64,000 nt of DNA from Isurus oxyrinchus. Lineage: Eukaryota. The notes beneath the pieces were generated by a model that saw only the letters and a list, made by a program, of their open reading frames with translations, ran no database searches and was not told the DNA's origin. Below, one piece after another: positions 1 through 63,197 of this stretch (position 1 is the stretch's first letter; every line of letters starts with the position of its first letter). The stretch spans positions 103,726,001-103,790,000 of the forward strand of contig JANJGN010000005.1 of NCBI GenBank assembly GCA_026770705.1, in the 5' to 3' direction. A program made the position numbers and the translations under genes.

Positions 1-1090
1 GCAGATCCTGGAAATACCTGGAAAAATTCAGCAGGTCTGGCAGCATCGGCGGAGAAGAACATTGTTGACGTTTTGAGTCCTCATGACCCTTCAACAGAAC
101 TAAGTAGAAATAGAAAAGGGGTGAAATTTAAGCTGGTTTAAGGGGGGAGTTGGAGGTGGTGGTGGTGGTGGTGGTGTGGGGCTGGGGGGTTGTTGGGACA
201 AGCAAGCAGTGATAGGAGGAGATAACCAAAAGATGTCACAGACATAAGAACAAAGAGGTGTTGAAGATGGTGATATTATCTAAAAGATTAAGATTGGAGA
301 GCAGGACGAGCAAGGTAGCTCTAGTGGGGGGTGGGGTGAAATAAACCATGTGTGGAATACATTTAAAAATAATGGAAATAGGTGGGAAAAGAAAAATCTA
401 TACAAATTATTGGAAAAAACAAAAGGGAGGGGGAAGAAATGGAAAGGGGGTAGGGATGGAGGAGGGAATTCAAGATCTAAAGTTGTTGAAATCAATATTC
501 AGTCCGGAAGGGTGTAAAGTGCCTAGTCGGAAGATGAGGTGCTGTTCCTCCAGTTTGCGTTGGGCTTCACTGGAACAATGCAGCAAGCCAAGGACAGACA
601 TGTGGGCAAGAGAGCAGGGTGGAGTGTTAAAATGGCAAGCGACAGGGAGGTCTGGGTAATGCTTGCGGACAGACCGAAGGTGTTCTGCAAAGCGGTCACC
701 CAGTCTGCGTTTGGTCTCTCCAATGTAGAGGAAACTGCATTGGGAGCAATGAATGCAGTAGACTAAGCTGGGAGAAATGCAAGTGAAATGCTGCTTCACT
801 TGAAAGGAGTGTTTGGGCCCTTGGACGCTGAGGAGAGGAAGTGAAGGGGCAGGTGTTGCATATTTTGCGTTTGCATGGGGAGGTGCCGCAGGTGGGGGTT
901 GAGGAGTAGGGGGTGATGGAGGAGTGGACCAGGGTGTCACGGAGGGAACGATCTCTATGGAATGCCATCAGGTGGGTGAAGGGAAGATGTTGTTTGGTGG
1001 TGGCATCATGCTGGAGTTGGCGGAGGATGATCCTTTGAATGTGGAGGCTGGTGGGGTGATAAGTGAGGAAAAGGGGGAACCCTATCATGG
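1..1090 (-). mobile_element. Penelope-like retroelement, 5'-truncated (GIY-YIG C-terminus, 3' UTR and hammerhead-bearing terminal repeat)
   Basis: Minus-strand ORF has VYCIHCSQCSFLYIGETKRRLGDRFAEH...EQHLIFRLGTLHPSGLN (PLE GIY-YIG endonuclease). Terminal module at 1-101 matches other copies. Highly similar to 62425-63197. Confidence 0.9.
470..940 (-). pseudogene. PLE GIY-YIG endonuclease fragment
   Basis: GIY-YIG signature VYCI...YIGET...R..EH. The upstream CKRKICNTC Cys motif lies in a different frame (ORF 696..1124), i.e. frameshifted. Confidence 0.85.
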
Positions 1091-3209: not shown

Positions 3210-4335
3210 AACTGGCTAAGGTTGACAGGGTAAATAGACTCAAAGGTTTGGCAATAAATAAACAGTGGGAAACATTTAAAGAAACAATTCAATAAATGTT
3301 CAACAAAAATACATTCCATTGAAAAACAAAAAACCAGCATAAAAGACCCATCCATAGCTTATTCAGGAAGTTAAATATAGTATTAAATTTAAAGAAGAGA
3401 CTTATAATGTTGCAAGGAACAGTTGCAAATCTGAGGGTTGAGAGTGTTTTAGTAATCAAAGGGCCACCAGGAAGTTGGGAAAAAAACAGAATATAAGAGT
3501 AAACCAGCCAGGAATATAAAAACAGATTGTAAGAGCTTTTCCAAGTATAAAAGAGAGTAGCTAAAATAAATATTGGTCCCTTAGAAGCAGAGACATGAGA
3601 AATTATCATGGGAATGAGGAAAAAATGGCAGATGCATTAAACAAATATTTTGTGTTCGTTTTCAATGTAGAAGACTCAAGTTACATAAATTCCCCAGACT
3701 AATTTCTGGAATGACAGGATTATCATCTAAGGAGAGATTTGAGGATAAAAACAAAGAGAACTGCGGATGCTGGAAATCCAAAACAAAAACAGAATTACCT
3801 GGAAAAACTCAGCAGGTCTGGCAGCATCGGCGGAGAAGAAAAGAGTTGATGTTTCGAGTCTTCATGACCCTTCGACAGAACTTGATGAGGCTGGGCCTGT
3901 ATCAGGCCATAGGAACATACAGTGCAGACTCACTATACAATGCAGATTCACCATGCTGCTGTCTAGTACAAGGAAATACAATTGTGAACACAAACAATAA
4001 CTGGGGCTCCTTTTATTGCAGCAGAGGTGATCATTAGGTGATTTGATGGGGATGTTTAATATTATTAAGTGATGTTTTCACATTAGATAGAAATAGTTTT
4101 CTAGAACAAGGGGACATAAACATAGGATTAAACATAGCAGGGGCCAGGGGAGGAGAGAAGAAATATTTTTATGAAAAGGGGGTTGAGAGACTATGGAAGG
4201 CACTAGAGTTATGACTGAAGAAGACACTATCTCAACATAGCAAATAAGATATATGTGTTTGAAGGAAAAAGTAAATAAAAATGATACGAGAAGAGTGAAG
4301 CTACAGAGGACTGTGGGACTATTTCTCATGAAGGA
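3210..4335 (+). mobile_element. Decayed CR1 LINE fragments, interrupted by a PLE terminus
   Basis: CR1 ORF2-like segments (ggtcccttagaagcagagaca...gaaattatcatggg; ctagaacaaggggacataaa). Confidence 0.6.
3745..3882 (-). mobile_element. Short PLE terminal module with hammerhead motif
   Basis: Near-identical to 42167-42305. Confidence 0.85.
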
Positions 4336-4340
4336 TAAAC

Positions 4341-4480
4341 TCTTCTGAAGAAGAGTCATACAGGTTCGAAATGTTAACTCTGTTTTTCTCTCCACAGATG
4401 GTGCTGTTAGACCTGCTGAGATTTTTTAGCATTTTCGTTTTTGTTTTGATTTCCAGCATCCGCAGTATTTTGCTTTTATC
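4341..4480 (+). mobile_element. Short PLE terminal module with canonical-core hammerhead
   Basis: ctgaaga-agagtcatacaggttc-gaaa-tgttaac followed by the ...ccagcatccgcagtattttgctttt tail. Confidence 0.8.
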
Positions 4481-15002: not shown

Positions 15003-15884
15003 CTGAACTGATGACATTTAACAAGTCAAACTTAAACAATTTATCATTTGACCTTCAAGATGAAATCACCACTATGCCTGTAAACAAACTTGCGATGTAT
15101 ATGATTGCGAAAAATTAATGTTTCAGATAAATAGTGTTTTGCAACAAGTCAAATAGGGGGCATATTTCCAAGTACATTACCATCATCAGAATGGTAAATT
15201 ATTTCAATTTTAATATATGCCCCAATGAAAAGCAAAAAGCTAGGCCTACAAATTATAGCCACAGTACAGGATAATTTTGTACACATCTTTATTTGCAAAT
15301 TCAGAAGTAAACAATCGTATTCCTGATCAGTTTCAACAGGGAGTTTTCATAGAGACATCAACGGGTTTAAATTTCACAGAAGTGCAAACAATCTGAATGC
15401 AAGCTGCATTAGAGCTTAGGCAAGCAGTGTAAGATCACCTCCAGAAGCTGGCCCATCAACTACTTCAGTTACATTTCTATTGCAATAGAACGCCAAACCA
15501 CAAAGCAGTTTAAAATATTCTCAAGCCATCCAATAGATCAGTTAGGGGCATAAACGTACTTTTGGTTCTTTGCTACAATAAAAGTCCCAGCTGCACGTAA
15601 AGGCTTATGCCACTATAGACTGTTACTAGCCTCCCACCAGTACCTACAAGTACACGTTGGACACATTAAGCCTTTCCCCAAGTAATCTTAAAACTGTAAA
15701 CACAAAAATAATTAAACATATTTGCACACTGTAACAATTAGATTATGTATTGTATGCCCACGCTAAAAAAACACACCCTAAAAAAGTACACATCTTTACA
15801 GAAGTGAATCTGCTGACCACAGAACATTTGTTACTAAACTACAAGACACCAAGTACTCTATTAACAAAATAAAATGCTGGAAAT

Positions 15885-17060
15885 TAGAAATAAGCAAAAA
15901 TGCTGGCAAGACTCAGGTCTGGCAGTATCCATGTAGAAAGAAACAGATAGACATTTTACTTCAATGATCTTTCATCAGAACTGGAAAAAGTTAGAGGTGC
16001 AACAGGTTTTAAGCAAGTACAGGGGCAGGGGAGGAAAGAACAAAAGAAGGTCTGTTATAGTGTGGTAGAGTAAATGACAAAAAGGTGATGGCAAGGGGAT
16101 AAGTAAATAAATGAAAACTAGAGGCATAGATGGAAAAAGCAGAATTAAGAGCTGCCATCTAAAGAAAGGACAGCAGAGGTTATTATCTCAAATTGATTAA
16201 CTCAATGCTGAGACCAGCAGGTTGTAAAAAAATGCCTCATTGAAAGATGGGGTGCTATTCCTTGAGCTAACATGGAGTTTCATTGAAAATGTGTAGGAAG
16301 CCAAGAGAAAGGTTATACTGGGAGTGAAGCAGAGAATTAAAATGACAACCATGGTGGAGCTTCATTGTAGAGGTGTAGGTGGCCAAGAACAGAGAGATCA
16401 GAGTGGGAGTGTAGCACAGGAAATGCAATTCCAGCCATCTTTTACCTCCTCCCTTTTCACTACCCAAGGCTCAAAATGTCTTTCCAGTAAAACAATAAAT
16501 ACTTCTTTCAATTTAATATACTGCAATCATTTCTCACGATACAGGCTCCTCTGCACTGAGACACTAAATGCTGATTAGGTGACTTCTTCATTGAACACCT
16601 CCGTGCAGTCCACAGGTGTGAGCCTGAGCTTCCAGTCTCCTGTCATTTTAATTCTCCACCCCCACTCAGACTTCTGCCCTCTACCTTGGTCCCAATGAAG
16701 CAGAGGATAATCTTAGGCAATTTACAGCTTTCCAGGTCATTTCAGATCATAACCTCTGCCACATTTTTTTGGTTTTGAATGGCAGCTGATGATTCTGCTC
16801 ATCCCAGTTACAGCTCAACTAGACCCACCTTTTGTTTCTTTACTTGTCTCATTAACATTTCCTTCAGCCTTCCACATTATCTCATCATTTAATCTCTTGC
16901 TTCCACCCTGACACAGACCTTCCCTGCCTGTGCACTTGCTTAAAACTTGTTGTATATCTAATTTTTTCAGAGCTGATGAAAGGTCATTGACCTGAAACAT
17001 TAACATCTGCAGATTCAAAATTATCAAATCTGCTGACTGTTGAGAAGTTTTTGTTTTTAT
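15885..17060. mobile_element. Old PLE in inverted (head-to-head) configuration
   Basis: Minus-strand terminus plus GIY-YIG end (15885-16420), then plus-strand GIY-YIG, 3' UTR and hammerhead (16420-17060). Confidence 0.75.
16971..17004 (+). ncRNA. Minimal hammerhead ribozyme motif (canonical core, decayed stems)
   Basis: CUGAUGA-A-AGGUCA-U-UGACCU-GAAA-CAUUAAC. Confidence 0.65.
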
Positions 17061-21999: not shown

Positions 22000-23155
22000 C
22001 TAGATCCCATTAGGGCCTTGGTCTAAACATGGGCAGAAGAGTTGAATTCCAGAGACGAGGTGAGATTGACTGCCCTGGACATCATGCAACCCTGACAAAA
22101 TTGAAGTCAATGGATGTCTGGGTGGGGTGGGGTAGGAAAACTCTCCACTGGTTGGAGTGATACCTACCACAAAGGAAGGTGGTTTTGGTTGTTGCAGGCC
22201 GATCATCTAGGTCAATCACCTCAGCCAAAGGCCATCGCTTCAAGAGTTCCACAGGGCAGTGCCCTAAGCCCAACCTTTCAGCTGCCTCCATCATAAGGTC
22301 AGGAATGGGAATGTTCACTGATGATTGCAGTGTTCAGTACCAAAAGCAACTCCTCAGATAGTGAAGTGCATTCCTGCAAGGGCCAAGATAAGATATGGAC
22401 AGCAAATCAGACCTGGGCTGATAAGTGGCACGTAACATTTTTGCTAGGCCATGACCACCTCCAATAAGAGAGAATCTAACCATCTCCCATTGCTGTTCAA
22501 CAGCATTGCCATCTCTGAATCCCCCACTATCAACATCCTAGAGGTTACCATTGACCAGAAACTGAACTGGACTAGCCATATAAATACTGTGGGTACAGGA
22601 GCAGGTCACAGGCTGGGAATTCTGCAGCAAGTAAATTACCTCCCAACTCCCCATCTACAAGGCATATGTCAGGATCGTGACAGAATACTCCCCACTTGCC
22701 TACAGCAGTACAGCTCCAAAACCTTGAAGCTTCACACCTTCCAAGACAAAGCAGCTGGCTTGATTGGCACCCCATCTACCATCTTAACCATTCACTCTCT
22801 CCACCGGCACAAAGTGCACACTGCTGCCACTATCTACACGATGCACTGCAGCAATACACCAAGGCTCCTCCAGCACCACCTTCCAAACCTGCTATCCAGA
22901 AGAACAGAGGCAGCAGACATATGGAAACACACCACCTGTATTTTCCCTTCCAAGTCACACACCATCCTGACTTGGACCTATGTCACCATTCCTTCCCCTC
23001 ACTGGGTCAAAGGCTGGGAACGAGCGCTGTGGATATACCTAAACCTCAGCAGCTTAAGGAAGCAACTCACCATCACCTTCTCTCAAGGGCAGTTAGTGAT
23101 CGGCAATAAACACTGGCATTGCCAGCGCTGCTCATATTCCACTAAAGAAGTTTAA
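22000..23155 (+). mobile_element. Second CR1-like LINE family, RT C-terminus and 3' end
   Basis: VPQGSAL; ORF 22451..23155 ILEVTIDQKLNWTSHI...HSLHRH...IYTMHCSN; an inverted copy of the tail follows at 23180-23310. Confidence 0.85.
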
Positions 23156-26564: not shown

Positions 26565-28080
26565 ATAGAAACTAGGAGCAGGAGTAGGCCATTCAGCCCT
26601 TCAAGCCTGTTCCGCCATTCATTATGATCATGGCTGATCATCCAACTCAATAGCCTGCTCCCACTTTCTCCCCAGATCTTTTGATCCCTTTCGCCCCTAA
26701 CTCCTTCTTGAAAACATACGATGTTTTGGTCTCAACTACTTTCTGTGGTAATGAATTCCACAGGCTCACCACTCTCTGGGTGAAGAAATTTCTCCTCATC
26801 TCAGTCCTAAATGGTCTACCCATATCCGCAGACTGTGACCCCTGGTTCCGGATTCCCCCACCATCAGTAACATCCTTCCTGCATCTACCCTGTCTAGTCC
26901 TGTTAGAATTTTATAGGTTTCTATGAGATCCCCCTCATTCTTCTGAATTCCAGCGAATATAATCCTAATCGACTCAATCTCTCGTCATATGTCAGTCCCA
27001 CCATTCCAGGAATCGTCAGGTGAACATTTGCTGCACTCCCTCTATAGCAAGTACATCCTTCCTCAGATAAGACGACCAAAATTGCACACAATATTCCAGG
27101 TGTGGTCTCACCAAGGCCCTGTACATTTACAGCAAGACATCCCTGTTCCCGTACTCGAATCCTATGGCTATGAAGGCCAACATACCATGTGCCTTCTTTA
27201 CCACCTGCTGCACCTGCATGCTTACCTTCAGCAACTGATGTGCAAGGACACCCAGGTCTCTGTTGCACATTCCCCTCTCTCAATTTATAACCATTCAGAT
27301 AATAATCTGCCTTCCTGTTTTTGCCACCAAAATGGATAACCTCACATTTATCCACACTATACTGCATCTGCCATGCATTTACCCACTCACTCAGCCTGTC
27401 CAAATCACACTGAAGTATCTCTGCATCCTCCTCACAGCTCACCCTCCCACCCACTGTGTGTCATCTGTAAATTTGGAGATATTACATTTAGTTCCCTCAT
27501 CTAAATCATTAATATATATTGTGAATAACTGGGGTCCCAGCACCAATCCTTGCAGTACCCCACTAGTCACTGCCTGCCATTCAAAAAAGACCCGTTTATT
27601 CCAACTCTTTGTTTCCTGTCTACTAACCAGTTTTCTATCCATCTCAATACAGGACCCCCAATCCCATGCACTTTAATTTTACACACCAATCTCTTAGGTC
27701 GGACTTTGTCAAAAGCCTTCTGAAAATCCAATTAAAACACATCCACTGGCTCCCCCTCATCGACTCTACTAGTTACATCCTCGAAAAATTCCAGTAGATT
27801 TGTCAAGCATGATTTCCCTTTTGTAAACCCATGCTGACTCTGTCCGATTCTGCCACTGTTTTCCACGTGCTCAGTTATTAAATCTTTTATAAGGGACTCT
27901 AGAATTTTCCCCATTACCAACGTCAGGCTGACTGGTCTATAATTCCCTGTTTTCTCTCTGCCTCCCTTTTTAAATAGTGAGGTAACATCAGCTACCCTCC
28001 AATCTGTAGGGACTGTTCCAAAGTCTATAGAATCTTGGAAGATGACTACCAATGCATCCACTTGACCACCAATGCATCCA
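26565..28080 (-). mobile_element. Relatively young CR1 3' portion (RT)
   Basis: NYRPVSLT, QHGFTKGKSCLTNLLEFFE, KFTDDT and WQMQYSVDKCEVIHFG in consecutive frameshifted ORFs. Confidence 0.92.
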
Positions 28081-40875: not shown

Positions 40876-42265
40876 AAACCTAGAGATAAAAGAAAATTCA
40901 AGACAGGACAGGAACATGACCTTCAATGTTATACACCTAGCACATCTACTGGTGTATACAGAGCCTATGCAGGAATTGATTGTGCAACAGAAGTACCGCA
41001 TTTACAGAAAATTAGAGAAGATTCAGCTATGATATGACGGCAATAAAAATGTCTGCTGATATCCTCAGAAGAAAAAAGGTAGAGGAAGAGGAGATGGAAA
41101 ATAAATAAAGAACAGCATCAGAATGTGGGTATCTTCGTGAAATTCTAAATAACTTGACTGTCACATGCTATGCAGTGGGGGTGGGGCAGAACAGATGAAT
41201 CAAAAATGCTTTCCTTCCCCAACAGAGCTGCAACATGTGAAGACTTTCATTAAAACTAATTAATAAAATGAACATTAAAAGAGTTAGCTGTATGTCTCTG
41301 GTGAATAATAAATATATCTGCTTGATTATGTCATTAAAAGTTGTGACTATAAGTAGAGAGATCAAACACCCAGATGCCAGTGCTCTCAGACTATACAAAT
41401 ATTTGTCACTCGACCTGATTACAGTGGAGCTAAAGCAAGTAATTGAATATAGTTTACATGGTTTACCACCAAAATGCTAAAAAATTGCACAATCTGAGGG
41501 GGTGAAAATGTAAGTTTTTAAAAAGATATTAATCAAATCGCCTGGAATTCACTATATTATCTAATAGGGTAAGCAGAAATTTTCATAGGCGGATCATTTT
41601 CCTGAAGCACTACTTACAGTTATTTAAGTTACTCAGAGAATTAAATGGGCAGAATGGATGATGCAACAAATTACAAGACTGTGTAGAACTAATAACATTT
41701 ATAATTGCTGCAACTAGAATTTAACATTTTTTTTTTAAAAAGTGCAACTTTGACATCTTCAAGGCTTCTTTTATGCCAATAAGTTTATCTATCAGATGAT
41801 AGAACTGGGTACTACAGGAACAAGTGCAAGTTGTAGATTCAGTATTTTCATTTATTTTTCTTTGAACTTTCCAAATGGTGTTGATCTTAATTCCCTGTTA
41901 AAAAGCCACAAACTCCAAATTGAGAAATCCTCAACAGCTTCTATTGGCTCAACATAGAGTACATTACTCTCTCCTTAGCAAAGTCCAGAGAACCTGCCTG
42001 GTCTCCATTAATCAAGCCTGTTCACAAGTACTGCTGAAGCTTAAGCCACACAGTAAACTTCCCACTTAGCCAGCTGGAACTATCCCCAAATAAACTATGA
42101 ACAATCTCAGCCAACATTAACAAACCACTTTGATACAAACAAGAACCAACTCACCTACACCCTAGAGATAAAAACAAAAAAACTGCGGATGCTGGAAATC
42201 CAAAACAAAAACAGAATTACCTGGAAAAACTCAGCAGGTCTGGCAGCATCGGCGGAGAAGAAAAG

Positions 42266-42304
42266 AGTTGACGTTTCGAGTCCTCATGACCCTTCGACAG
42301 AACT
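42266..42304 (-). ncRNA. Mirror-image hammerhead motif
   Basis: Exact reverse complement of 42312-42350. Confidence 0.75.
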
Positions 42305-42311
42305 GAAAAAC

Positions 42312-42350
42312 AGTTCTGTCGAAGGGTCATGAGGACTCGAAACGTCAACT
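42312..42350 (+). ncRNA. Minimal type I hammerhead ribozyme motif (variant core CUGUCGA)
   Basis: AGUU-CUGUCGA-A-GGGUC-AUGAG-GACUC-GAAA-CGUC^AACU; stems I and II pair; ACGU palindrome sits at stem III. Confidence 0.75.
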
Positions 42351-43439
42351 CTTTTCTTCTCCGCCGATGCTGCCAGACCTGCTGAGTTTTTCCAGGTAAT
42401 TCTGTTTTTGTTTTGTTTTTTCACCTACACCCTAGAAGGATAGTCACTTGTAAATTACAAGCTCTTGCAGGACAGACAGCAATCACAATGGGCTCCTTGC
42501 ATGGCATTCTTAAAACAACTCAATAAGTTGACCACAGTATGATCACTAATTTACTCAAGCAATTCCAGTCCCCGGGGTAAATGCCAACATTGTATTTACC
42601 TCTTCAAATTGTTTTTTGCACCTGTCTGCTAACTTTTTAAGTAATCTGCATACCAGCTTCTGCTTATCTAGTTTCTAGCTTCTTATGATTTGGCCAATAT
42701 TCTGAATTCTTCTCCTTGGATCTAAATCTCTCACTTCCCCACATTCAACTCCAATTGCCAGTTCTGCTCACTCACTTAAGCTGTTCCTTTGTGACTTTCT
42801 GCTTCCTCCTACATACGGTACTGTTCTATATATGAAAAAACCAAGGTCAGAGTACAGATTACTGGAGAAAAATGGTTTCTCACATTTCATCAATTAGTAA
42901 ATTCCCTTTATCCCTAATCTCTTTCTCCAATCAATTTTAAATCCTTTTAAAAACTTTAAATTATGTCCTGAGGTTTCCTCCAGTTTCACATGTTCTAATT
43001 TTTACTCATCACTTGTGTGAACCATATCAAAAGTCCATACTGACAGCATCTTTAAGTACTCCCATCCACTTCATCTGTAGCCAAATTCACTTCCCCAACC
43101 AACACAGGAATCGTACCATATAAACAGCATTCAGGTAACACTTCCCATTCATTCAAAGTGAGTTTTCTCAGCTATATCACAGAACTTGTGCCTTCAAAGA
43201 AATGGACATTAAATTGTTTAAGATCAAGCAACACCCAATACTTGTGCACAGAAGTAAACAATTTCTGAATCCCACTGATGCGCTTTGAAGTTACCATCTG
43301 GACTGTACATGTTATAATCCCACATCTGGCAGATGAAACTATACCCATGTACTCTTCCAGTCAGCACAGCAGCTGAATGCAACATGGAATTTCAACTGTT
43401 ATAACTATATATATTATGTTCTTATTTTATGTAATAGTT

Positions 43440-44330
43440 TATAAGAAAATAAGTAGAGGCATAACATACAAAAGCAAGGAAGTTATGATGAACCTTCCTA
43501 AAACACTGGTTCAGTCTCAAATGGAGCATCGTCTCCAATGTCTGGCACCATACTTTAGAAAGGATGTGAAGGCATTAGAGGGGGTTTAGAAATGATGTAG
43601 GAGAATGGTTCCGGGGATAAGAGGCTTCAGTTATGAGGGCAGACTGGAGAAGCTGGGGCTGTTCTCGATAGAGAGGGTTAACTTGAGATTTGATTGAGAT
43701 GTTCACAATCCTGAAGGGTCTGGATGAGTAGATAGAGAGAAACATTCCCATTGGAAGAAGTATCAACGACCAGAGGACAGCAATGTAAGGAGAGCAGTAA
43801 AGGAACCAAAGATAACAGGAGAAAAAACTTTTTTTATGCAATGAATGGTTCGGATCTGGAACGCACTACCTGAATGTGGGGTGGAGGCCCAATAGTTCGC
43901 CATTGTGAGATTTGAACTCTTGATACTCTTTCGAGCACAAACCCGTTTCCATCTGTTTCAGATGAAGTTACATTGTTTCATAGTTTGCCATTGTGAGATT
44001 TGAACTCTTGATACTCTTTCGAGCACAAACCCATTTCCATCTGTTTCAGATGAAGTTACATTGTTTCATAGTTTGCCATTGTGAGATTTGAACTCTCAAT
44101 CTTGGGGTTACAAACCCAGTACCATAACCACTTGGCTATTTAGGCCAAGCCATGGAGGCCCAGTGGTGCCTTTCAAAAGAGAATTGGATAATTAACTGAA
44201 GAGAAAAAAAATGTCAGGTCTACAGGGAAAGAGCGGGGGAGAGGGACTCGCTAAACCGTTCTTGCAGAGAACCGACACGGATACAATGGGATGAATGGCC
44301 TCCTTCTGCGCTGTAACGAGTCTATGAAGG
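43440..44330 (+). mobile_element. CR1 3' end (hosts a SINE insertion)
   Basis: ISRGITYKSKEVMMNL...APYFRKDVKALEGV; CR1 hairpin tail. Confidence 0.85.
43892..44152 (-). mobile_element. tRNA-Thr(TGT)-like SINE or tRNA pseudogene with 88-bp tandem duplication
   Basis: Minus strand has A box TAGCCAAGTGG, anticodon loop tTGTaa and B box GAGTTCAAATC; units start at 43892, 43980 and 44068; 10-bp TSD tggaggccca (43882-43891, 44153-44162). Confidence 0.8.
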
Positions 44331-46559: not shown

Positions 46560-46825
46560 ACATGACATCTTGTCAATCTCTTCTTAGCCTTCACCTATTG
46601 CTGATCTTCTATCCAGCTTCACCTGCTCCACCACCCCCACCCCGCTTAAACAGTATAAATTTTATCACATTTCTACTTCTCTTTAGCTCTGAAGAAGGGT
46701 TATACAGACTCAAAACATTAACTCTGTTTCTCACTCCACAGATGCCGTCAGATCTGCTGAGTTTTTCCAGCATTTTCTGTTTTCATTTCGGATTTCCAGC
46801 ATCCACAGTATTTTGCTTTTATCTT
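46560..46825 (+). mobile_element. PLE 3' UTR and terminus
   Basis: ctgaagaagggttatacagactcaaaacattaac and standard tail. Confidence 0.8.
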
Positions 46826-46849
46826 TGATGTTAAGAGGAACTTGGGAAC

Positions 46850-51261: not shown

Positions 51262-51365
51262 CAGTTCTGTTGAAGGGTCATGAGGACTCGAAACGTCAAC
51301 TCTTTTCTTCTCCGCCGATGCTGCCAGATCTGCTGAGTTTTTCCAGGTAATTCTGTTTTTGTTTT
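51262..51365 (+). mobile_element. Short PLE terminal module with hammerhead (51263-51301)
   Basis: Near-identical to 42311-42415; core CUGUUGA. Confidence 0.88.
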
Positions 51366-51479
51366 AGTGTCAAATCAGAATTGTTCCTGTTCAAGGTGCC
51401 ATGATTTGAATTTAGCAAGGCTATATGCCAGCACCTGATTACTAAGTCAAGAGGTAAGCTATTTGTAGTAGAATGCCCA

Positions 51480-53047: not shown

Positions 53048-53995
53048 ATGGCAGGGCAGTCCAGTCTCATGTTATGTACTGCCTGAAACATGTGGGAAGT
53101 CCTGGATGCTCCTTGCACTCTGACAGACCACATGTGCAGGAAGTGCCACCAACTGCAGCTACTTGAACTCCGAGTTTCAGAGCTTGAGCAGCAGCTGGAG
53201 GCACTGAGGTGCATCCGTGAGGCTGAGAGTTTTGTGGATAGCACCTTTTTAGATGTGGTCACTGCACACCTTATGGAAGTGCAGACAGAGAGGGAATGGT
53301 GACCATCAATCAGAAGAAACGTGTCAGGCAGATAATCAGGAAATCCCCAGTGTGCATATCGCTCAAGAACCATTTTTCTGTGTTAGAAAATGGTGAGAGT
53401 GATGGTTCCTCTGGGGAGTGCAGCCACACTCATGGCACTGTGAGTGGCTCAGCTGCACAGGGTGGGAGGAAAAAGAGAGGGAGAGCAATAGTGGTAAGAG
53501 ACTCGATAGTAAGGGGCACAAACAGGCGTTTCTGCGGCCGTAGATGTGACTCCAGCATGGTATGTTGCCTCCCTGGTGCCACGATCAAAGATGTCACTGA
53601 ACAGCTGCAGGGCATTCTAAAGGGTGAGGGCAAACAGAAAGAGATTGTGTTACATATTGGTACCAACGACATAGGTAGAAAGAGCAGGACATAGGTCCTG
53701 CAAACAGAATTTAGGGAGCAAGGAAACAGATTTAAAAAAAGGACCTCAAAGGTAGTAATCTCTAGATTACTTCTGGTGCCACGCGCTGGTGAGTATAGAA
53801 ATAGGAGGTTAGTCCAGATGAATGCATAGCTGGAGAAATGGTGCAGGAGGGAGGACTTTAGATTTCTGGGACATTGGGACCGTTTCTGGGGGGCGGTGGG
53901 ACCTGTGCAAAGCGGACAGGTTGCACCTGAACCGGAATGGGACCAACATCCTTGCGGGGAGGTTTGCTAGTGCTGTTGAGGAGGGTTTAAACTAA
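53048..53995 (+). pseudogene. CR1 ORF1: zinc finger, leucine zipper and SGNH esterase; disrupted
   Basis: CTA*...HMCRKC, LELRVSELEQQLEAL, IVVRDSIVRG, CLPGA, VLHIGTND; stops and frameshifts. Confidence 0.88.
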
Positions 53996-54119
53996 CTTGG
54001 CAGGGGGATGGGATCCTGAGAGGAGGTTCAGCAGGGGGAGATGCACAGCCAAAATTAGAAGAGAGAGTAAGTGAAGCTGGAAGGCATAGAATGATAGGCC
54101 AGTTAAGATACAAGGGAGT

Positions 54120-56904
54120 TTGGCAAGGTTAGATGATATTTATTTTAATGCAAGGAATCTGACAAATAAGGCAGATGAGTTGAGGGCACAAGTTAACACA
54201 TGGAACTATGATGTCATTTGTGTTACAGAGACATGGTTGAGAGAGGGGCAGGATTGGCAGCTCAATGCTCCAGGATATAGGGTCTTCAGGCAAGACAGGG
54301 AAGCAGGTAAAAGAGGAGGGGGTATTGCAATATTGATCAAGGAATCAATTACAGCAGTAAGGAGGGATGACATCTTAGAAGGCTCCTCAAATGAAGCCAT
54401 ATGGGTAGAACTGAAAAACAAAAAAGGAACAATCACATTGCTGGGAGTGTACTATAGGCCCCCAAACAGTCAGAGAGAAATAGAAGAGCAGATATGTAGG
54501 CAAATTTCAGAGAAGTGTAAAAATAATAGGGTAGCAATAGTGGGGGATTTCAACTTCCCCAACATTAACTGGGTTAGTCATAGTAAGATAGGTTTAGAGG
54601 GAATGGAATTCTTAAAATGCATCCAGGAGAGTTTTTTAAGCCAGTTTTTAGAAGATCCTACAAGAGAGGAGGTGGTCCTGGACTTAGTTTTAGGGAATGA
54701 AGCCAGGCAAGTGGGAGAGGTATCAGTTGGGGACCATTTGCAGATAGTGATCATAACTCCATTAGATTCAATGTTGTTATGGAAAAGGACAAGGATGGGC
54801 CAGAAATCAGAGTTCGAAATTGGGGGAAGGCCGATTTTGATAAGATCAGATATGATTTGGCCAGAGTGAACTGGGAGCAGCTACTTTTAGGTAAGTCTGC
54901 GTCAGAGCAGTGGGACCCATTCAAGAAGGAAATAGGGAGAGTACAAGGCCAACATATTCCAGTAAAGACAAAGGGTGGGACCAACAAATCCAGGGATGTC
55001 GAGGAATATACAGGATTAGATAAAGAGAAAAAGGGAGGCTTATGGCAGATACTGAAGGCTCAAAACAGTGGAAGCTCTAGAGGAGTATAGAATGTATTGG
55101 GGGGAACTTAGAAAGGAAATTAGGAGAGCAAAAAGGGGACATTAAAAACATTGGCAGGTAAAATAAAGGAAAATCCAAAGTTATTTTACAAGTACATTAA
55201 GAGTAAGAGGATAACTAGGGAAATAATAGGGCCCATTAAGGACCATAGTGGTAATTTGTGTGTGGAGCTGGAAGATGTAAATAGGGTTCTAAATGAGTAC
55301 TTTGTGTCGGTGTTCATAAGTGAGAAGGACGATGTGGGTATGGAAATCAGGCAGAAGGACTGTGATATAATTAAAGAAATAAGCATTGAAAGGGAGGAAG
55401 TTCTAAGTGGTCTGGCAGGCTTAAAAGTAGATAAATCTCCAGGCCCGGATGAAATGTACCCCAGACTGTTGAGTGAGGCAAGGGAGGAGATAGCAGGGGC
55501 ACTGGCAATAATTTTCAATATCTCTCTGGCCAGAGGAGAGGTGCCAGAGGACTGGAGGACAGCCAATGTGCTACCATTATTCAAGAAGGGAAGAAGAGAT
55601 AAACCAGGGAACTACAGGCCAGTCAGTCTAACCTCAGTGGTGGGGAAACTATTGGAAGCAATTCTGAGGGACTGGATTAACCTACACTTGGAGAGGCAGG
55701 GATTAATCAAGGACATTCAGCATGGTTTTGTTAAGGGGAGGTCATGTCTGACCAATTTGATTAAATTTTTCAAAGAGGTGACCAGGTGTGTAGATGAGGG
55801 CAATGCAATGCATTTGATGTAGTCTACTTGGACTTCAGCAAGGCTTTTAATAAGATCTCACATGGGAGTCTGATAACGAAGGTAAGAGCCCATGGGATCC
55901 AAGGTAAATTGGATCCAGAATTGGCTGAGTGGCAGGAAGCAGAGGATGATGGTTGAGGGGTGTTTTTGTGACTGGATGCCTGTGTCCAGTGGGGTTCCAC
56001 AAATCGGTTTTGGGTCCCTTGCTGTTTGTGATATATATAAACGATTTAGACTTGAATGTAGGAGTGTTGATCATTAAGTTCGCGGATGACACGAAAATTA
56101 GTGGGGTGATAAATAGTGAGGAGGATTGACTTAAATTACAGGAGGATATAGACGGGCTGGTCAGATGGGCTGACCAGTGGCAAATGGAATTTAATCCAGA
56201 TAAATGTGAGGTGATGCACAGGACAAACAAGGCACGGGAATACACGATGAATGGTAAGACCCTGGGAAGTACCAAGGATCAGAGAGATCTTGGCGTACAT
56301 GTCCACTGGTCCGTTAAGGTAGCGGGACAGGTAGATAAGGTGGTTAAGAAGACATATGAGATACTTGCCTTTATTAGCCAAGACATAGAATATAAGAGCA
56401 GGAGGTTATGCTGGAACTGTATAAAACACTGGTTAAGCCACAGCTAGAGTATTGCATGCAGTTCTGGAATCCACATTATAGGAAGGATGTGATTGCACTC
56501 GAGAGAGTGCAGAGGAGATTTACCAGGATGCGTCCTGGGCTGGAGAGTTTCAGTTATGAAGAAAGATTGGATAGACTGGGATTATTTTCCCTGAGCAGAG
56601 GAGATTGAGGGGGGACATGATTGAGGTGTATAAAATTAAAAGGGTCATAGATAGGGTAGACAGGAAGGAACTTTTCCTCTTGGTGGAGGGATCAATAACC
56701 AGGGGGCATGGATTTAAAGTAAGGGACAGGAGGTTTAGAGGTGATGTGAAGAAGAATTTTTTCACCCAGAGGGTGGTGGGAATCTGGAACTCACTGCCTG
56801 AAAGGGTGGTAGAGGCAGAAACCCTTATAACATTTAAGAAGTATTTGGATGTGCGATGCCATGGCATACAAGGCTATGGTCCTGGTGCTGAAAAATGGGA
56901 TTAG
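54120..56904 (+). pseudogene. CR1 ORF2: APE endonuclease and reverse transcriptase; frameshifted
   Basis: YFNARNL, VTETWL, YYRPP, VGDFNFP; KSPGPD, NYRPVSLTS, QHGF, FADD. Confidence 0.93.
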
Positions 56905-62424: not shown

Positions 62425-63197
62425 AAAAACAACAACAAAAATACCTGGAAAAACTCAGCAGGTCTGGCAGCATCTGCGGAGAGGAACACAGTTAACGTTT
62501 CAAGTCTGAATGACTCTTCAACAGAACTAAGTAAAAATAGAAGAGAGGTGAAATATAAGCTGTTTTAAGGGTGGGTGAGACAGGTAGAGCTGGATAGAGG
62601 GCCAGTGATAGGTGGAGATAACCAAAAGATGTCACAGACAAAAGGGGAGGTGTTGAAGGTGGTGATATTATCTAAGGAATGTGATAATTAAGGGTAGAAA
62701 GCCGGACAAGCAAGGTACAGATAGCCCTAGTGGGGGTGGGGTGGGGTGAAGGAATGAGAAAAGGCTAAAAGGTAGAGATAAAACAATGGAAAGAAAATAC
62801 ATTTAAAAATAATGGAAATAGGTGGGTAAAGAAAAATCTATATAAATTATTGGGAACAAAAGAGGGGGATCGGAAAGGGGGTGGAGATGGAGGAGAGAGT
62901 TCATGATCTAAAATTGTTGAACTCAATACTCAGTCCGGAATGCTGTAAAGTGCCTGGTCGGAAGGAGGGGTGCTGTTCCTCCAGTTTGCGTTGAGCTTCA
63001 CTGGAACAATGCAGCAAGCCAAGGACGGACATGTGGGCATTAGAGCAGGGTGGAGTGTTAAAATGGCAAGTGACAGGGAGGTCTGGATAATGCTTGCGGG
63101 TAGACCGAAGGTGTTCTGCAAAGCGGTCACCCAGTCTGCGTGGTCTCTCCAATGTAGAGGAATCCGCATTGGGGGCAACGAATGCAGCAGACTAGTG
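62425..63197 (-). mobile_element. Penelope-like retroelement 3' fragment with hammerhead (62490-62528)
   Basis: RRLGDRFAEHLRS...HFNTPPCS...EAQRKLEEQH; same family as 1-1090. Confidence 0.9.

Follow-up and report, generated by a model that had tools for sequence, protein, structure and literature searches.

The fold-back locus and its surroundings

The motif at positions 42312-42350 of the window (the whole 64-kb stretch of DNA that was analysed) lies in a fold-back insertion of a Penelope-like element (PLE) at 42151-42436. The two arms of this insertion are identical over 102 nt, and the tail of about 35 nt is present on the left arm only. The layout and coordinates given for the motif by a previous sequence-only reading are exact, with U at core position 6 (U6) instead of the canonical A (Table 1). 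As the arms are mutually antisense, the dimer cleavage proposed in that reading is inapplicable to these two arms, and in a read-through transcript they would fold into a 102-bp hairpin, within which the sole sense motif would be buried. This copy is a dead fold-back, and any transcript of it would pair arm to arm. An Rfam search returned no hammerhead match, only miRNA-like hits on the fold-back.

Helix I, a helix II with G10.1-C11.1, an extra nucleotide after A9, and a palindromic loopless helix III followed by an NUH site (ACGU, then C17) are all found in the motif, as in minimal hammerheads. The core consensus with A6 is found in older, ancestral subfamilies and is lost in the U6 lineage; for this reason, and because cleavage is putative, we class the sequence as a hammerhead-derived motif rather than a ribozyme. 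The minimal hammerheads of metazoan PLEs (Cervera and De la Pena 2014, PMC4209133) share with the shark motif the type I layout, a 4-bp helix I, a 5-bp helix II opening with G10.1-C11.1, the extra nucleotide after A9, loopless palindromic positions 15-16, the place in the pLTR and a very high copy number. However, their consensus has A6, with U3-A8 as a reported core variant, whereas the shark motif reads U6. Minimal PLE hammerheads cut weakly as dimers, and this dimer cleavage literature fits the loopless ACGU (PMC4209133).

Table 1. Features of the fold-back locus, other copies of the element in the window and related loci (window positions)
Feature	Position	Strand	Remarks
Minimal hammerhead motif (right arm)	42312-42350	+	
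Stem I, 5' strand	42312-42315	+	
Core positions 3-9	42316-42322	+	U6 = 42319
Extra A after core	42323	+	
Stem II	42324-42328 with 42334-42338	+	
GAA	42339-42341	+	
Palindromic ACGU	42342-42345	+	
C17	42346	+	Predicted cut 42346/42347
Stem I, 3' strand	42347-42350	+	
Mirror minimal hammerhead motif (left arm)	42266-42304	-	U6 at 42297; predicted cut 42270/42269
Left target-site duplication, 16 bp	42151-42166		Identical to 42421-42436
Right target-site duplication, 16 bp	42421-42436		Identical to 42151-42166
Left arm, inverted 5'-truncated PLE end with tail	42167-42305	-	95.8% to intact unit L031 over 142 nt
A spacer, 5 nt, at inversion junction	42306-42310		Directly 5' of both stems I
Right arm, 5'-truncated PLE end without tail	42311-42420	+	98.1% to L031 over 103 nt
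Upstream frame from loop-II AUG	42329-42385	+	L031 4577 onward
5'-truncated PLE: GIY-YIG frame 470-967, pLTR, U6 motif 63-101	41-1089	-	83% to L031 over 1108 nt
Short PLE end, U6 motif 3844-3882	3748-3886	-	
Short PLE end, U6 motif 51263-51301	51263-51367	+	
Older (S3) PLE fragment: ORF end, pLTR, U6 motif 62490-62528	62426-63194	-	
Older (S0) copy, canonical A6	4341-4472	+	
A6 copy	about 5060		
Older (S0) copy, A6	46685-46832	+	G12A by decay
Copy from more distant family, A6	16969-17005	+	Stem II different yet paired
Decayed copy from more distant family, A6 motif 15945-15982	15874-15982	-	
C6 / C-G6 loci noted			G000; L366, L367, L369, L371, L374, L376, L378

An nhmmer search gave 15 hits in the window, and inspection found the hammerhead-bearing end in 11 of them, in agreement with the PLE termini of minimal hammerhead layout described in the sequence-only reading. 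Six of these ends, from five insertions, read U6 and five read A6, which bears out the earlier observation that the best-conserved copies carry U6 and the more diverged ones A6. Two U6 copies (41-1089 and 62426-63194) are joined to pLTR and ORF-end sequence; the motif at 63-101 also carries G12A and that at 3844 carries G16.2A (CpG decay). Elsewhere in the window, open-frame fragments at 1006-1704, 22448-23155, 26921-27460 and 53242-55822 resemble pieces of a non-LTR retrotransposon endonuclease or RT, the last of which we take to be CR1-like, and a tRNA-like match (44074-44145, minus strand, E 0.032) is presumably the head of a SINE.

The element and its intact units

Full units were located from pattern hits 3.3 kb apart. 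One locus (L031) consists of tandem units of 3.35 kb. Its three motifs, each with U6, enclose a stop-to-stop frame of 926 aa (918 aa when counted from the ATG) as well as a neighbouring unit with a frameshift; a second locus (L035) has a 925-aa frame between two U6 motifs. The protein matches RVT_1 (E 7e-08) and, at its C terminus, GIY-YIG (E 9e-04, a weak match below Pfam's cut-off), the single-ORF arrangement of EN+ PLEs. It has 839 homologues at E <= 1e-30, and the one of highest identity (69%) belongs to the shark Chiloscyllium punctatum, which makes a shark the likely host. Tandem pLTRs, inverted 5'-truncated copies and a tail of 30-40 nt are also found, as in EN+ PLEs. A C-x4-C-x2-C linker precedes GIY-YIG and fits the CX2-5CxxC linker of Neptune; such a linker between RT and EN is given for both Neptune and Nematis (PMC8557442). 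The element is an EN+ PLE that is Neptune-like by its linker, although Nematis has the same linker. It shares the RT with C-terminal GIY-YIG, the Cys linker, the pLTR tandems, the inverted 5'-truncated copies and the tail with Neptune-type EN+ PLEs and Naiads (Craig et al. 2021, PMC8557442). The hammerhead is wholly absent from Naiads, which thrive without it, whereas the lineage studied here retains all but one core base.

Unit matches occupy 34,632 of 800,000 randomly chosen bases, and for 25 of the 52 copies sampled an inverted partner lies no more than 3.5 kb away. Distinct insertions match the L031 unit at 99.4-99.6% identity, so masters carrying U6 moved recently. Moreover, U6 stands in both repeats flanking intact RT and GIY-YIG frames and thus comes from active masters rather than from decay, as the sequence-only reading had argued. 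U6 was inherited from active masters. With its ATG 140 nt beyond the predicted cut, the ORF leaves position 6 non-coding, and coding constraint on it was rejected.

The history of position 6 and the fate of the fold

The genome was searched for exact matches to a 34-nt pattern with the youngest stem II; such counts represent motifs rather than insertions and are biased to young copies. The pattern has 76,286 matches against none for a reversed control, which is not a chance result, and these read U6 in 74,517 cases (by subtraction), A6 in 132 and C or G in 1,637. With stem II left free, there are 109,066 matches with U6 and 13,361 with A6. No alternative letter reached 5% at position 6 in contigs from three public runs of two organisms. 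We also considered a hidden young A6 master and rejected it for the youngest-stem-II pattern: 30 of the 132 A6 copies were inspected and are spread across several subfamily backgrounds, as expected of back-mutations. C6 is combined with U7 in about 83 of 100 listed copies with C or G at position 6, and an upstream type is common to several of them. When 20 C6 loci were fetched, about seven shared the upstream type, two had C6 in both arms and at least four had a U6 partner arm. This suggests a small transposed C6 branch together with scattered transitions, and position 6 looks relaxed. In organism C (run X19), the consensus of five contigs at a loose end before L031:4570 (agreement 0.67) reads U3, A6 and A8, a weak hint; U3 with A8 is the compensatory core pair known from Schistosoma.

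The copies form a ladder of subfamilies, S0 and S1 (A6), a side branch S1b (A6), S2 (first U6), S3, S4, S5 and S6, sorted by sites outside position 6 plus position 6 itself; as the S1-S3 classifier used position 6, the position-6 tallies of S1-S3 are not independent. Divergence was taken from non-CpG sites at the ORF end, the divergences from the subfamily sorting being biased low by the fetch patterns, and is 0.094 in S0 (3 copies), 0.050 in S1 (12), 0.043 in S2 (8), 0.041 in S3 (3), 0.024 in S5 (7) and 0.011 in S6 (21). The ORF-end tree resolves S0-S2 poorly and has one misassigned row, and the order rests on diagnostic sites plus divergence. A more distant family reads A6 in 89 among the 100 matches listed of 454, with a stem II that is different but paired. 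Since A6 is found in both the older subfamilies and this distant family, it is the ancestral state. As judged from these sites, U6 has a single origin that long predates the youngest subfamily, and it persisted across five successive subfamilies. Set against the divergence of these copies, a comparison of the kind that the sequence-only reading had proposed, position 6 is A in S0-S1 (0.094-0.050) and U from S2 (0.043). The U6 copy at 62490 comes from one of the older subfamilies, and thus U6 does not identify a young subfamily alone. The earlier description of a young subfamily fixed for U6 is therefore right as to fixation and wrong as to youth, U6 dating from a subfamily about 4% diverged. 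Dating in years was dropped, as the published shark rate is per generation (PMC10587355).

No compensatory change inside the 39 nt accompanied A6U between S1 and S2. The side branch S1b (L158, L160 and L050) acquired C17 and the G-U wobble just as the U6 line did, and its likeness to S3-S4 reflects either parallel change or recombination between masters. From S4 on, an AUG in loop II opens an upstream frame of 18 codons that closes before the main ORF. In the approximately 30 nt upstream of stem I, S0-S4 copies have a pyrimidine tract with AG exactly at stem I, resembling a splice acceptor, which was remodelled in S5-S6. In the PLE of D. virilis an intron ends at helix I; a shared first exon, as for a splice acceptor at stem I, was not seen in the truncated copies.

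After U6, the master line acquired six changes in the 39 nt, namely N7, N17, three loop II events and one A-U to G-U wobble. No core position was hit and no pair was broken, while the approximately 25 nt just upstream were heavily remodelled. The chance that all six changes avoid disruptive sites is 0.001-0.003, conditional on six changes and assuming even rates. Measured instead against the synonymous divergence from S2 to S6 (0.13, interval 0.07-0.21, from 16 changes among 134 four-fold sites), zero disruptive changes have a probability of 0.04 (range 0.005-0.16); this rate-based P stood at about 0.007 (11 of 63 sites) before more synonymous sites were included. From these sequence comparisons, the fold has probably been held by selection; the evidence is moderate, and on the catalytic core alone it is not significant either way (P 0.21-0.27). 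Pairing is kept in 91.9% of 135 stem cells, a figure that comes from related rows and is not a probability. In stem II, one pair differs on both sides and another occurs as three types of pair, and this stem covaries between families; stem I shows no compensatory change in the same alignment (135 cells). The covariation check proposed in the sequence-only reading is thus borne out for stem II and not for stem I. Predicted folding energies, which are blind to the effect of the core, are -5.9 kcal/mol for the hammerhead against a minimum of -7.3 for the monomer, and -10.1 against -18.2 kcal/mol for the dimer. In S2-S4 motifs, U6 is predicted to allow base pairing between U4-U7 and A14-G16.2. The junction would then close into a rod, in competition with the dimer helix III, and this rod would become weaker once U7 changes to C.

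The search for footprints of cleavage and the possible role of the motif

Copies of cut RNA would begin at the AAC after C17. Among young copies anchored downstream, 936 of 88,939 lack C17, and inspection of 30 of these found ten true starts at the cut site and one small deletion. True cut-site starts therefore amount to about 0.5% of the young set, no more than at neighbouring positions. None of 110 sampled copies ends at the site. The end falls 2-29 nt upstream in 18 copies and 30-46 nt upstream in 34, and the other 58 extend further; two copies close to locus edges were left out, and the comparison with the best of 150 references may lengthen a copy by a few nt. The 5' ends of insertions thus cluster in the stretch 30-46 nt upstream of the cut site, immediately ahead of stem I, and this pile, we infer, likely marks the start of the RNA. 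An internal promoter in the pLTR has been shown for D. virilis (PMC2377424). The older anchor set consists mostly of A6 ancestors (16 A6, 6 U6, 2 G6 and 6 truncated in a sample of 30). Here, 54 of 3,577 copies have a purine at position 17, and 30 that were inspected gave five true starts and six small deletions, again about 0.5%. The near absence of cut-site 5' ends indicates that the inserted RNA was likely uncut, both before and after A6U. As the same footprint is found in A6 ancestors, it says nothing specific to U6, and as it is limited to inserted copies, cutting of RNA that never inserted is compatible with it. At L129, L329 and L337, inversion junctions join the arms via the AACT of stem I and mimic a cut-site start.

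The reading we prefer, to which we would give about an even chance, is that a cleavage-impaired hammerhead has been kept as a structured 5'-end element of the PLE RNA. By analogy with published mutants, A6U likely leaves the motif nearly unable to cut: in a type III hammerhead, low activity was measured for every single or double mutant of the CUGA turn other than a C3:G8 swap (PMC9901934), and the natural A6C hammerhead of phage Bcep176 cuts at <0.1 per min (Perreault et al. 2011, PMC3088659). The latter is also a position-6 change of low activity; however, it is a single rare example with C, whereas in the active vertebrate retroelement lineage studied here U is fixed in >100,000 copies. In this scheme, the element RNA would start at or just before stem I, and reverse transcription would begin in the tail and copy the uncut RNA back through the motif. 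A6U could have spread in a master because insertion would not need cutting, and the stems and junction may still be held by a non-cutting role, as a protein handle or internal promoter. For PAc, an anole PLE of the Poseidon clade (Frangieh et al. 2024, PMC11167929), dead ribozymes had no effect on insertion in vitro, and cutting was dispensable. The 5' half of the motif was unneeded for insertion in vitro as well, which counts against a non-cutting role. The ORF of PAc starts at stem II, unlike that of the shark element with its more distant ATG. Footprints and published mutagenesis together tilt the choice left by the sequence-only reading, between a functional variant and a repurposed motif, toward impaired and dispensable cleavage.

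It is possible, though we hold this only tentatively, that U6 is a working variant that cuts slowly as a dimer or with an element protein, a low rate being enough or even suited. Two findings count against our preferred reading and would be expected if cutting mattered, namely that the other ten core positions, like stem pairing, are unchanged across five subfamilies after U6, and that N17 moved from U to C, both in the U6 line and in the A6 side branch, giving GUC, the best cleavage triplet. Natural A6C keeps a low, detectable activity (PMC3088659), and the PAc hammerhead cuts only when protein is added (PMC11167929), so core defects might be buffered. However, mutants in the position-6 region had low activity without second-site rescue (PMC9901934), and A6U itself came without a compensating change within the motif. 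All 44 rows seen among 56 representative metazoan motifs have A6, although that search required A6, and no shark is among these 44 (PMC4209133). The probable C6 sub-branch likewise suggests relaxation rather than a tuned U. No report of a U6 hammerhead and no measurement of A6U activity was found in the texts searched.

A bolder form of our preferred reading, which we consider somewhat unlikely, is that a dominant and recently active lineage switched its hammerhead off by A6U and gained from it, and that selection keeps the dead fold as a pseudo-ribozyme for a non-catalytic job at the 5' end. It is unlikely that the motif is instead a vestige in which A6U hitch-hiked with a successful master and the fold is no longer held, with too little master-lineage time for erosion. 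The modest S2-S6 synonymous divergence predicts 1.3 core changes, so that zero is unremarkable; the motif as a whole has changed at the neutral rate, with six changes in 38 sites, and the predicted monomer folds favour other structures. Nevertheless, all six changes avoid disruptive sites, on the conditional as on the rate-based estimate, while the sequence just upstream was remodelled over the same interval. Post-insertion decay or assembly error as the source of U6, for which only the general decay of copies speaks, is extremely improbable and is refuted by the genome-wide U6 matches, the intact tandem units and the uniform position 6 of the public-run contigs.

PLE hammerheads are near-universal in these elements, yet they are poor cutters and dispensable for insertion in vitro. 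Although A6U probably leaves self-cleavage badly impaired, the element continued to spread, to >100,000 copies of the U6 motif. Searches that require the A6 consensus would miss 109,066 of the 122,427 pattern matches (89%) in this genome. The lineage offers a natural before-and-after comparison, with A6 ancestors, U6 descendants and intact frames, and thus the need for cleavage is directly testable. Either outcome would be informative, revealing a new working core or a conserved ribozyme fold that does not cut.
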